A DNA stretch of 32,313 nt from Eledone cirrhosa (taxonomy: Eukaryota), in assembly GCA_964016885.1 (NCBI GenBank), contig CAXHJY010000727.1:1-32313 (forward strand). Direction: 5' to 3'. The first letter of the stretch is position 1. Every line of letters starts with the position of its first letter. Made by a program: the position numbers and the translations under genes. The notes under the pieces were generated by a model that had not been told where the DNA came from, made no database searches, and saw only the letters and a program-made list of their open reading frames with translations. Shown piece by piece: positions 1,956 through 31,395 of this stretch.

Positions 1956-2145
1956 TTTTATATACATATATATATATCACGATAGATTAACGGAGCCATA
2001 GACTCTCGCTATTCCCTGTCAATAATGTGCTCAAAGGGGAAGGAATCCTGAGCTCTTTAAAATACAATATGTTGAAAAGGTAACACACTAGTGCGCCCTC
2101 AATAAAACAGAAAAAACCACCAGTGTTTAGAATCTATAACCTATG

Positions 2146-2314: not shown

Positions 2315-2439
2315 AATCTGTTATTTTCATAATATTTGCTCTGGGGTTCTTATATATTGATAGATATTTATCCTTATCGAGCCCTCTTTGGGGTTTAGTC
2401 TTCACATTTATTATTATTAATAATGTATATATATAATGT

Positions 2440-6564: not shown

Positions 6565-6566
<2 letters not shown>

Positions 6567-7006
6567 AAAGTTATATTTAAATTGTTGGGTTACAACTAGT
6601 AAATATTTATAACTGATATAAAAGCACTCGACAAATATTTGGAGTATATTTACAATATTAAATAAATGGAAACTATATTTATAAAACCATATTTATTTCA
6701 TTATATATATTTCAGGGATATCATATTAACAATATGCTATGCCTTCCTCAGACAAAATACAATATAAACAGTTTTATAGATAAATAGATTCGACATACCG
6801 TAACAACATCGACTTGTATTTGAAAATCAACCTTTTCAAATACAAGTCGATGTTGTTACGGTATGTCGAATCTATTTATCTATAAAACTGTTTATATTGT
6901 ATTTTGTCTGAGGAAGGCATAGCATATTGTTAATATGATATCCCTAAAATATATATAATGAAATAAATATGGTTTTATAAATATAGTTTCCATTTATTTA
7001 ATATTG

Positions 7007-7014
<8 letters not shown>
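6565..7014. mobile_element. PLE-like asymmetric foldback, family A copy 1
   Basis: Arms 6645-6826 / 6833-7014 are near-perfect, with an 80-bp tail (6565-6644) on the long arm. Hammerhead in each arm (CTGAGGA at 6908; GAAA is intact in the minus-strand arm). (TA)n on both sides. Confidence 0.85.
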
Positions 7015-7043
<29 letters not shown>

Positions 7044-7045
<2 letters not shown>

Positions 7046-7218
7046 CGAAGGAAATGTGGTAAGGAACCAGGTGGACCATAACGCACCAAAGTACTCAATA
7101 CTTAGGGTAGTAGAGTGGGTAATAGGAACGAGTAGGACCCCGACGGCTGAGCTCAAGCCGTTTCGACGGCTAATTCCGTCGAAACGGCTTGATCTCAGCC
7201 GTCGGGGTCCTACTCGTT

Positions 7219-7223
<5 letters not shown>
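7044..7223. mobile_element. PLE-like asymmetric foldback, family B copy 1
   Basis: Arms 7122-7169 / 7176-7223 carry GAAA-CGGCT-loop-AGCCG-TC (hammerhead stem III plus GUC site). Tail 7044-7121. Lies in (TA)n. Confidence 0.8.
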
Positions 7224-7250
<27 letters not shown>

Positions 7251-7253
<3 letters not shown>

Positions 7254-7545
7254 ACAAATTTCGCTCTACATGGCTGAATGCAATAAATGTAATCTGAGTT
7301 TTTCGAATATTAATAATAACATTCGATTCGTTTAAAATTATGCTAACAAGCCTCAATTTTATAGCCATGTCAGTAAAATGAACCCCTGAGCTGTACTGAT
7401 GAAGGGTGATACCCAGAAACAGTGTCTGCAGTTCTGTTTGCATGTCAACACAAGAGCAAGAATGAAGGGTTCATTCTACTGACATGGCTATAAAATTGAG
7501 GCTTGTTTGCATAATTGCAAAAGAATCGAATGTTTTTATTAATAT
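7251..7545. mobile_element. PLE-like asymmetric foldback, family F
   Basis: Arms 7307-7387 / 7465-7545, tail 7251-7306, complete hammerhead in the spacer. Single-arm homologue at 10992-11118. Confidence 0.8.
7388..7434 (+). ncRNA. Type I hammerhead ribozyme (minimal)
   Basis: Stem I GAGCTGTA/TGCAGTTC; CTGATGA 7396-7402; stem II GGGT/ACCC; GAAA 7416-7419; GTC site 7424-7426. Confidence 0.8.
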
Positions 7546-8159: not shown

Positions 8160-8612
8160 GGAAAGTTATATTTAAATTGTTGGGTTACAACTAGTAAATA
8201 TTTATAACTGATATAAAAGCACTCAACAAGTATTTGGAGTATATTTACGATATTAAATAAATGGAAACTATATTTATAAAACCATATCTATTTCATTATA
8301 TATATATTTCAGGGATATCATATTAACAATATGTTATGCCTTCCTCAGACAAAATACAATATAGACAGTTTTATAGATAAATAGATTTGACATACCGTTC
8401 AACATCGACTTGTATTTGAAAAAGTGCCAAATCAACTTTTTCAAATACAAGTCGATGTTGAACGGTATGTCAAATCTATTTATCTATAAAACTGTCTATA
8501 TTGTATTTTGTCTGAGGAAGGCATAACATATTGTTAATATGATATCCCTGAAATATATATAATGAAATAGATATGGTTTTATAAATATAGTTTCCATTTA
8601 TTTAATATCGTA
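8160..8612. mobile_element. PLE-like asymmetric foldback, family A copy 2
   Basis: Arms about 8246-8425 / 8435-8612, tail 8160-8245. Intact hammerhead cores in both arms (CTGAGGA 8512, GAAA 8550). Confidence 0.85.
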
Positions 8613-8690
8613 TATATATATATATATATATGTTGATTTAAAACTGCACTATCCACAAGTGTTTTTTAGCCTTCATATCATGTTCTCCTG

Positions 8691-9790: not shown

Positions 9791-9793
<3 letters not shown>

Positions 9794-9966
9794 ATTCCGG
9801 GTTGAATCGGGGGTAACCTCACTAAGTAAGGTACTCAATACATAGCAGAGTATACATGTTTAAATATAGAAAAGCTTCTACAGGACTAGAACTGTTTCAT
9901 TCGTGAGAAATCATTCTCACGAATAGAAACAGTTCTAGTCCTGTAGAAGCTTTTCTATATTTAAAC
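9791..9966. mobile_element. PLE-like asymmetric foldback, family C
   Basis: Arms 9858-9909 / 9914-9966, tail 9791-9857. GAAA-CAG...CTG-TA-GAAGC ribozyme half in both arms. Confidence 0.8.
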
Positions 9967-10009
9967 TATATATATATATATATATATATTATATAGGAAA
10001 GAGAGAGTT

Positions 10010-24605: not shown

Positions 24606-24804
24606 GTAGTTTGAGTGTTATTTCGTAGCTATTTCTAGCACATCGAGGGGGCAGATGTGTGCACAACGTTTACTTCTTGATTATCTCATTTACTACTTTG
24701 GCAAAACTTTGCTGCTCTGGGGAGGTTACAAGAGCGAAACATGTCGTGAATTGTCACAGAATACTTGATAGTTCACATAGATGTCAAAACTATATATATA
24801 TATA

Positions 24805-25215
24805 TATCACAGAAAAAAAGAGAATCAGTGTTGCGACGAATGGAATTTATTGGACATATGACAATCGTTTCTCTGGCGACCAGCTCGAGGCACGATCGAT
24901 GTGATGATCGAACCTGACTCTGAAAAACGCAAGGTTCTCGGATACGAAGCAGATTTTCCTATGGACATAGGGAAATCTGCTTCGTAGAATCAAGACGTAT
25001 CTGAGGACCTTGCGATTTTCAGAGTCAGGTTCGATCATCACTTCGGTCGTGCCTCGAGCTGGTCGCCAGAGAAACAATTGCAATATGTCCAATAAATTCC
25101 ATTCGTCGCAACACTGATTCTCTTTTTTTCTCTGATATCATACTCTGCTCTATGAGAGCATCGAGTGCTCATACGGCCTACCGCATACGGACGCTTTAGC
25201 ATCCAACACCAATTA
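24805..25215. mobile_element. PLE-like asymmetric foldback, family L
   Basis: Arms 24805-24963 / 24966-25137 (the left arm has a small deletion), tail to 25215. Hammerhead GACGTAT-CTGAGGA(25001)...GAAA(25071)...ATATGTC, then AATAAA. Confidence 0.85.
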
Positions 25216-25485
25216 TTATATATATATATGCATATATATATATGTATGTATATATATATATATATATATATAAACAATGAGTTATATGGTTTGTTGATTA
25301 TCATTCAACAAAATTAATTTTACACACACACACACACTTACACACACACACACTTACACACACACACACACACACATATGTATTTCTTTAATGATTTTTG
25401 TGCAACATAACTGCGTTCTAAGAAAATGACTAAATAAACTTATATGTGTGTGTGCCTACACATATATCTACATATATTATGTATG

Positions 25486-25557
<72 letters not shown>

Positions 25558-25605
25558 TATATTTGTCTGCATATATACATATATGCATATATATATGTGT
25601 ATGTA

Positions 25606-26055
25606 GATAAATCTACCAAAATATGCGGTAGTGTCCAATCCGTATGAAGAACTCAATGTAATCCAAATATCATGAAAAGAAAAGATGTATTCAAAATTTG
25701 TTTCGATGAAAATCACAGGAAAACAGAGTCAAGATAAATTAACAAAAACAATGAATAAAAACAAAGAAACAGTTCCTTATATTAAAAAATTCATCATTTT
25801 ACGATCGTTTCTAGGATATATATGTCTGTGTTGGTATGTATATCATATAGATCTATGTAAAAATTATTTCTGAAGACAGCATATATATGTGTAGGTATGT
25901 ATATTCCGTCTGATAGTTTGTAACATTTTTACATAGATCTATATGATATACATACCAACACATACATATATATCCTAGAAACGATTGTAAAATGATGAAT
26001 TTTTTAATATAAGGAACTGTTTCTTTGTTTTTATTCATTGTTTTTGTTAATTTAT
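25606..26055. mobile_element. PLE-like asymmetric foldback, family M
   Basis: Arms 25734-25864 / 25925-26055, tail to the left. Hammerhead ATTATTT-CTGAAGA(25870)...GAAA(25978)-CGATTG-TA-AAATGAT. A fragment of the same family lies at about 31940-32015. Confidence 0.8.
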
Positions 26056-28969: not shown

Positions 28970-29029
<60 letters not shown>

Positions 29030-29031
<2 letters not shown>

Positions 29032-29230
29032 ACAGACCCTCCATCTCAACTCTACTTTTGAAAAGCAGAAGAACTGCGAAACCGGTAAAGGAACCAAATA
29101 AATATATATATTTTTTTTTAGATAAGACTCCAGTTGCATTTTCGATTTCATCTTTTTTTCTTTATACTTTCACTCGTGTAGGACACCTCGGTTATTTTTC
29201 ATTTTGTAAAAAAAACCTCACTTTCTAATA
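29030..29230 (+). mobile_element. Family K single-arm copy with a variant hammerhead
   Basis: CTT-TTGAAAA(29058-29064)-GCAG/CTGC-GAAA(29078)-CCGG-TA-AAG. The 3' part matches 19595-19745. Confidence 0.8.
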
Positions 29231-31091: not shown

Positions 31092-31233
31092 AATTTAGTC
31101 CAGAAATAGACGTCGTAACGGCTTCAGCTCTGCCGTCGGGGTCATACATTTTCCTATTACCCACTCTACTACCCTAAATATTGAGTACTCTGGTACGTTA
31201 TGGTCCATCTGGTGCCTTACCACAACTCCTTCG

Positions 31234-31235
<2 letters not shown>
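31092..31235 (+). mobile_element. Family B single-arm diverged copy
   Basis: Matches 15183-15315 and extends the family 5' to TTAGTCCAGAA. Confidence 0.8.
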
Positions 31236-31267
<32 letters not shown>

Positions 31268-31395
31268 TCATCATTATCATCGTTTAAAGTCCATCTTCCA
31301 CGCTAGATATATATATATATAATTCAAGTTAAAAGAAATATTGATGCTCTGGGCTGGGAAAAAGTCCATTGAGCTTTTCTATTGAGAAACATAAT

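Follow-up and report, generated by a model that had tools for sequence, protein, structure and literature searches.

Why do seven dissimilar repeat families in one stretch of Eledone cirrhosa DNA share the same small hairpin, and what does this hairpin do? The stretch analyzed, referred to here as the window, is 32,313 nt long, and its focal hairpin lies in the family called L at 25142..25169 (+), where it reads ACTC-6 bp stem-TC-GAGT-GCT (core site 25142-25166). An earlier note on this DNA took the hairpin for a conserved element recognized, as RNA or single-stranded DNA, by a mobilizing RT-endonuclease. A pattern scan of both strands for exact sites (ACTC-stem of at least 3 bp-loop-TY-GAGT) returned 13, and every site that the note lists with coordinates is real. 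Dinucleotide shuffles of the window contain a mean of 0.22 such sites (maximum 2; 300 shuffles), or 0.34 (maximum 4; 300 shuffles) with microsatellites removed, and only three of the 256 possible 4-bp helices, all three AT-only, outscored ACTC as outer helix. Across the 3.0-Gb genome, ACTCN{9,36}TYGAGTRCY matches 171,430 times and its reversal 17,925 times.

Self-comparison of the window showed that most carriers consist of an inverted repeat with a one-sided extension within (TA)n, the motif beginning no more than 6 nt from the end of the mirror. In family L, the inverted pLTR arms occupy 24804..25138 and the mirror stops 3 nt before the hairpin (start site 2 in the scheme developed below); the tail, 25139..25216 (+), stops at (TA)n (start site 1), 3 nt before the position of a second hairpin copy in full-length elements. 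Family A is represented by one stub at 16192..16657 (+; arms 16192-16573, hammerhead core 16467, hairpin 16573-16595, exact site 16573-16592, tail) and by two on the minus strand, 6565..7014 (hairpin 6623-6645, exact site 6626-6645) and 8160..8618 (hairpin 8218-8240, exact site 8221-8240). Family B contributes stubs at 15127..15317 (+; arms 15127-15237, hairpin 15243-15269, exact site 15243-15266, tail), 15787..15982 (+; hairpin 15908-15934, exact site 15908-15931) and 7045..7223 (-; hairpin 7090-7116, exact site 7093-7116), together with a tail-only fragment at 19228..19304 (-; hairpin 19274-19300, exact site 19277-19300). These are four of the five B copies originally claimed; the fifth, 31163-31186, lies in a stub without an inverted arm (31092..31237, +; hairpin 31163-31189) and has an A.A mismatch in its inner stem. 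Family C is found at 20403..20575 (+; arms 20403-20516, hammerhead core 20463, hairpin 20516-20537, exact site 20516-20534, tail) and 9791..9974 (-; hairpin 9830-9851, exact site 9833-9851), and family M at 25598..26055 (-; arms 25734-26055, long-loop hairpin 25648-25729, exact site 25651-25729, tail). The two remaining families are named by position: the 11513 family, whose hairpin has a cUUCGg loop (11510..11532, -; exact site 11513-11532), and the 11354 family (hairpin 11351..11387, -; exact site 11354-11387), whose stub is truncated inside a Hydra-type hammerhead. A covariance model added three sites, all of the GCTC/GAGC form: 2338..2385 (+; model match 2330-2385), 13 nt past an inverted repeat at 2136-2324; 2026..2053 (-; match 2026-2061), with an A-U closing pair; and 31346..31377 (+; match 31338-31377).

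An inverted pLTR plus a tail is the known layout of Penelope-like elements (PLEs), according to the available text of PMC8557442 and PMC3846280, and the motif carriers are 5'-truncated inverted pLTR-plus-tail stubs of Hydra-clade-like PLEs. Among 30 copies of family B, both outer ends are constant and the center is variable. A motif-blind search for inverted structures (arm of at least 40 bp, tail ending in (TA)n) gave 30 clusters, 18 of which have the hairpin at the start of the tail, compared to a mean of 1.8 (maximum 6) in shuffles, part of the 18 coming from loci that had been retrieved by the motif itself. Among the 12 clusters without it are five of Neptune type and several that are spurious, and the whole set adds GCTC/GAGC and GTTC/GAAC outer helices and UA bulges to the known forms. 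Other features of the window are an inverted hammerhead stub at 7251-7545 whose tail holds a decayed ACTC...TA-GAGC form, with GCTC/GAGC relatives; fragments at 20747-21442 (+) and 14134-14493 (-) that by eye resemble C-terminal parts of LINE ORFs; and, at the center of a family A palindrome, a sub-threshold Rfam match to MIR6140 (8347-8513; 93.9 bits versus 140). Such inverted stubs might pass for microRNA hairpins or be a source of them.

The general form of the motif is RCUC-[stem-loop]-UN-GAGY-RCU, with the consensus GCUC-[stem-loop]-UN-GAGC-ACU in other organisms and hairpin loops of 3 to about 75 nt. Contrary to what had been proposed, neither the outer helix nor the 2-nt pyrimidine bulge is fixed: GCTC/GAGC is usual outside this genome, GTTC/GAAC and GCAC/GTGC also occur, and the bulge is U-N (UU, UC, or UA), followed by a conserved RCU. 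The association with an upstream hammerhead on the same strand, described as invariable, holds for families but not for every copy in the window. A complete core is present upstream only for the three A copies, the C copy at 20516, and L, where a type I hammerhead with a long stem II (24994..25089, +) has CTGAGGA at 25001-25007, GAAA at 25071-25074, and, by eye, a stem III mismatch that is absent from its intact counterpart in locus L366. The remaining window copies are truncated inside the ribozyme; since longer copies of B, M, and the 11354 and 11513 families do carry the core, the statement is valid at the family level. Decayed hammerhead helix III is rejected as the identity of the motif, which has no catalytic core and usually takes the GCUC/GAGC form, although some Hydra helices III do read ACUC-n-GAGU. 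SECIS or another known Rfam family was likewise rejected: among the 150 matches listed of 240, none reaches its gathering score and none covers 25142-25166.

Which elements gave rise to these stubs? A Pfam GIY-YIG search of the genome retrieved Neptune- and Poseidon-type ORFs without the motif, and not the carriers. The link came from extending a long B copy upstream, which reached an autonomous element, and families A, B, L, and M trace to four such elements with 40 to 48% RT identity. The B protein is encoded by a single ORF of 717 aa (L236:4457-6610), to whose copy in L192 Pfam assigned no family, and 968 homologues were found. It combines an RT (YRDD at 348) with a C-terminal GIY-YIG-type endonuclease (EN; AYIG at 605), and has DKT at 117 in place of DKG, a CxCX5C linker (CNCPDRSIC, 572), CxxC (CNLC, 670), CxH (CKH, 698), RWR at 37 where the Hydra clade has an N-terminal RWK motif, and, by eye against Neptune proteins, no CCHH motif in the EN. 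DKT, CxCX5C, CxxC, CxH, and the lack of CCHH are the Hydra-clade marks in the available text of Craig et al. (PMC8557442), which also gives a length generally under 3 kb, a tendency rather than a criterion that the 3,531-bp B unit exceeds. B inserts sit in (TA)n, as do Hydra-clade PLEs, and its hammerhead has a U3/A8 variant core, while the pLTRs of A, C, L, and M have the canonical CUGANGA core. Judged from sequence by protein motifs, (TA)n target, and hammerhead, family B is a Hydra-clade-like PLE; the RT tree used below was built on a Hydra-profile alignment from which Neptune and Poseidon proteins dropped out. Tandem 3,531-bp B units agree at 2,008 of 2,009 compared bases and many 784-codon frames are open; the family is young and looks recently active from its sequence. 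In L236 and L237 (G000:C1:437.196-437.216 Mb), full-length B elements that are nearly identical and keep their 784-codon frames open stand in tandem. A B-like hairpin with a TATAT patch also makes up a kilobases-long 41-bp minisatellite in L334-L336 (G000:C1:14.236-14.268 Mb), and a 54-bp satellite with motif halves lies at C1:31.86 Mb. U3/A8 in place of C3/G8 was observed in family B (L236:4180-4260) and in three Neptune families (pLTRs of L062, L031, and L057); a ribozyme with this swap would retain its activity.

The full elements revealed what the earlier note had missed: each holds two copies of the motif, and each copy marks one fixed end of the insert. The order is hammerhead, copy 1, tail, copy 2, ORF, and 55 to 137 nt separate the two copies, both of which lie ahead of the start codon. 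A Hydra-type ORF preceded by both copies is present in A (L339, L344), B (L192, L236), L (L363, L365, L366), and three further families of this genome, with copy 2 mutated in the family L locus L082. In family M, copy 2, with a long insert as in copy 1, and an ORF were found in 6 of 7 loci examined and neither in L381. Neither copy 2 nor an ORF was found in the loci examined for family C and the 11513 family, and the 11354 family was examined through 20 stubs only. Since A, B, L, and M continue into ORFs, these are not tandem non-coding retrozymes.

To what extent is the pair of hairpins a property of the clade? An alignment of 41 relatives led to 86 loci in 75 families, and the motif was counted in 44 non-redundant foreign Hydra-type families with at least 150 nt before the modeled ORF start. 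At least one sense-strand copy is present in 41 of these, two in 27, and none in 3; under a loose definition an antisense match occurs in 8 of the 44, and the background in ORF interiors is 0.04 motif per 150 nt. Copy 1 lies 31 to 61 nt past the hammerhead and copy 2 34 to 74 nt before the modeled ORF start, with 55 to 83 nt between copies. Applied to 27 further loci (two close to training rows; L322 left out for size), a model from a 34-row alignment found sites in 25 of them, 49 in all, of which 48 lie on the sense strand. In a published supplement, available in part, four 9-mers of the motif 3' half occur 7 times, 4 of them in six Hydra consensi, where line breaks may hide matches. A one-protein metagenome scan and a viral scan found no relatives. 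Eight Hydra-type loci (L320-L327) lie within prokaryote genome bins, most likely as animal host contamination.

Outside the Hydra clade, motif model R1 found nothing in the tails of elements at 13 Neptune/Poseidon loci, and the 7 matches at these loci were interpreted as stubs of other families nested there. Neptune-type PLEs have left solo pLTRs in the window (19451-19745, 29029-29228) and in L062, L063, L066, L031, L057, and L073. The tails of three Neptune families begin with a common ACTC-GTG...CAC hairpin without a GAGY partner, possibly a clade-specific counterpart of the signal.

The covariation claimed for the inner stem is borne out across these families. In a search that left inner pairing free, 79 of 81 rows (with one motif entered twice) have a Watson-Crick closing pair. 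Copy 1 has U-A there in 22 cases and C-G in 22, with no cross-overs, against a permutation mean of 22 (maximum 34) of 45. The pair switches 9 to 10 times on the RT tree and is phylogenetically clustered (10 changes versus 17 shuffled), so that independent support amounts to about 10 events rather than 45. Covariation in the 34-row alignment, whose rows were picked by loop length, is 0.341, a value reached by none of 500 shuffles; three outer pairs never vary there and are thus uninformative on structure. Inner pairs 1 to 3 on the sense strand include 13 G.U against 3 A.C, and U.U occupies the second inner position in 12 of 34 instances of copy 2. Because of this G.U excess and loops of 3 to about 75 nt, RNA is favored over ssDNA as the probable acting form. 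Free folding is marginal: z-scores of the seven window hairpins range from -1.79 to +0.71, three of them favor alternative folds, the closing inner pair exceeds a probability of 0.5 in 24 of 44 copy-1 and 4 of 32 copy-2 contexts, and the sense strand folds better than the antisense only modestly. A protein would therefore have to stabilize the hairpin. All traced families are Hydra-type, so the motif is homologous and convergence among unrelated families is rejected. The possibility raised at the outset that the families are close, alignable relatives holds as to descent, but their RTs are only 40 to 48% identical and the surroundings of the motif cannot be aligned, so that descent without selection does not explain the motif.

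The ends of inserts show where the hairpins exert their effect. Ends were measured against full-length references, counted where they adjoin (TA)n, with offsets that include UA/UAU target homology; those of short arms cluster 3 to 5 nt upstream of copy 1, those of tails within the same range upstream of copy 2, and the last copied bases are UA or UAU. In family B, the offset is 5 nt for 74 of the 87 such ends at copy 1 and 3 nt for 75 of the 94 at copy 2, with 55 further alignment ends falling elsewhere or not beside (TA)n; in L, it is 3 nt at both copies, for 10 of 12 ends at copy 1 and 28 of 30 at copy 2. The B, L, and C loci were retrieved with tail-bearing queries, which biases the counts at copy 2. 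In M, 12 of 17 ends lie four nt before copy 2, while those at copy 1 are smeared in AT-rich sequence (10 nt in 4 of 7), and A ends are likewise smeared, at 5 to 9 nt and 7 nt before copies 1 and 2. The short arm in A, C, and M often stops 9 to 15 nt before copy 1 in AT-rich sequence. This comparison left out family F6, and its offsets for E4 were measured from the wrong upstream ACTC. Among foreign pLTR junctions not at a contig end, 15 of 19 fall 0 to 5 nt upstream of a copy, 13 of them scored by script and 2 by eye; L248, L261, L276, and L327 miss.

The two sites are used once each. Short inverted B inserts were counted genome-wide by sequence patterns, restricted to a center gap of 85 to 115 nt and with the 5 bases beyond the site deciding whether a tail is present (a DNA search with 60 nt of arm alone gave no matches). 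Of these inserts, 10,818 have one tail, 82 none, and 79 two (total, 10,979; 98.5% one-tailed), where independent site choice would give at most 50%. Measurement of 40 B inserts (two rows duplicates) gave a longer tail-less arm in 8, a longer tailed arm in 13, and arms equal within 3 nt in 19. Since the tail-less arm can be longer, in three cases by 225, 1,272, and 2,155 nt, it did not arise by fold-back copying of the tailed cDNA. Arm pairs share a diagnostic subfamily 8-mer in 36 of 40 inserts versus 10.4 shuffled: the two arms carry the same subfamily variants yet stop independently, most of them 52 to 69 nt before copy 1, beyond the ribozyme cut site, in stem II.

The covariation, the tie to hammerhead-bearing pLTRs, and the Hydra-type ORFs to which the carriers lead support a putative recognition element for the PLE RT-endonuclease. 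We consider it probable, from these sequence patterns, that each RNA hairpin docks one RT priming on nicked (TA)n DNA just upstream, and that the tail is the spacing between hairpins. The GIY-YIG domain would nick both strands of a (TA)n tract, and each nicked 3' end would pair with UA/UAU just 5' of one hairpin; each hairpin would seat one RT, with copying starting 3 to 5 nt upstream of it. Two RTs, probably a dimer on one RNA, would copy toward the 5' end of the RNA, with frequent stalling in stem II of the hammerhead, and joining of the two cDNAs would give an inverted pair with a single tail as long as the distance between the hairpins. Copy 2 would never be copied into the insert 3' end, so that solo stubs such as those of the window, which hold only copy 1, would be dead ends. 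A homodimer prediction for B residues 1-490 scored 0.00, returned no verdict, and weighs neither way.

Could the motif act on DNA instead, positioning the GIY-YIG endonuclease to trim or resolve a longer cDNA or tandem intermediate at the upstream TA? The insert ends resemble TA, the EN's own target, DNA folding supports the outer helix in 31 of 44 contexts, Craig et al. 2021 (PMC8557442), in the available text, attribute the tail to resolution by the EN, and fly Penelope EN needed the tail to cut plasmids, as cited in the accessible part of Frangieh 2024 (PMC11167929). However, loops of 3 to about 75 nt, compensatory pairs, and the 13:3 excess of G.U over A.C fit a folded sense strand rather than a duplex, the cDNA is antisense, and the independent arm lengths fit two priming events; we regard action on DNA as unlikely.

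The placement of copy 2 34 to 74 nt before the modeled ORF start would also suit a packaging or translation-control operator bound by the protein, with ends set only by the nearest UA-rich patch, as the smeared ends of the AT-rich families A and C might suggest. Yet B and L end at one exact position despite other UA patches nearby, the offset recurs across distant families, and the strict one-each use of the sites needs coordination, which makes such an operator very unlikely. Hardly more credible, and if anything less so, is a role in RNA processing, in which the hairpins would cause cleavage just upstream or define RNA 3' ends there and the RT would start at ordinary 3' ends in a LINE-like manner. 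Processing too would yield fixed ends 3 to 5 nt before a structured element, but a cut before copy 1 would lose the tail, whereas a short arm stands opposite a tailed arm with the same variants in 98.5% of inverted B inserts. The arms also extend across the hammerhead cut site, which shows an uncut template, and the lizard element starts internally on uncut RNA (PMC11167929, available text). That the motif is inherited sequence with no present role, as membership of all traced carriers in one clade might suggest, is extremely unlikely given 40 to 48% RT identity among A, B, L, and M, unalignable flanks, compensatory changes, and a fixed position relative to the ends.

How does docking of one RT per hairpin compare with what is known of PLEs, for which tails, hammerheads, internal starts, and the Hydra clade are already known? 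In the available text of PMC8557442, C-terminal EN+ PLEs of the Hydra clade share protein motifs, (TA)n targets, hammerheads, and the inverted pLTR with tail with our carriers. By eye, its Hydra-1_Ajap consensus has both hairpin copies before the start codon, Hydra-2_Amil and Hydra-2_Ajap have one hairpin at the 3' end, Hydra-1_Crog and Hydra-1_Obim have imperfect hairpins, and Hydra-1_Amil has none. Its passages on tails, hairpins, and cis-acting signals name no such motif, and its tail, an EN resolution product, is 30 to 40 bp, compared to 55 to 137 nt here. In the lizard element Poseidon_Ac, according to the accessible text of PMC11167929, RT initiates internally at two sites bounding the tail and depends on RNA 3' of the start; the protein cuts and extends both strands, is predicted to form a dimer, and does not need hammerhead cleavage. 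This element belongs to another clade, and that text defines no conserved positioning motif; its starts involve an AC-rich stem-loop with no target homology, unlike the UA pairing proposed for Hydra-type elements. By eye, its printed template has a 3'-bulged hairpin about 3 nt past the second start window, inside the required region, and RNA folds near the starts may appear in Figs S1 and S2, which lie beyond the text searched. Animal non-LTR retrozymes are also short hammerhead-bearing repeats derived from PLE pLTRs, but they are tandem non-coding units and the window copies are single truncated inverted stubs of coding elements; the motif is unnamed in the available retrozyme texts (PMC7229834; 10.64898/2026.07.22.740005). 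Neither the motif nor a twin-signal model was found in the literature searched, which included the accessible text of PMC4209133 and PMC7229834 and did not extend to Repbase, Dfam, and most subscription papers.

In the elements studied here, the second priming site would be programmed by a repeated signal, in contrast to L1, where it is opportunistic. L1 twin priming, the hepadnavirus epsilon, group II intron DIVa, and telomerase template-flanking helices are partial parallels as a set, in that two primers on one RNA lead to inversion and a bulged hairpin brings in an RT and sets where it starts; in epsilon, the template lies within the bulge and the primer is a protein.

How PLEs choose their template, and why their pLTRs are inverted with a one-sided tail, has been an open question since the class was first described. 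One in vitro study gave two internal starts and no signal; a covarying motif of 20 to 30 nt at a fixed 3- to 5-nt offset to both ends can be tested by point mutants. The hairpin pair would likely account for the long-noted, unexplained PLE tail. For annotation, the motif provides a handle, since about 150,000 excess matches in the genome mark stubs of elements whose protein Pfam does not detect. In a broader proposal, which we hold tentatively and at slightly less than even confidence, the clade encodes programmed twin priming, in which two signal copies, each seating one subunit of a telomerase-related RT dimer, define the two start points of a double-strand insertion; an equivalent arrangement with hairpins particular to each clade would account for the tails of all PLEs, and two short hairpins could make any RNA a substrate for two-ended insertion into (TA)n. 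PLE RTs are the sister group of telomerase RT, and an RNA element that sets the template register in PLEs may thus bear on the origin of telomerase RNA recognition.
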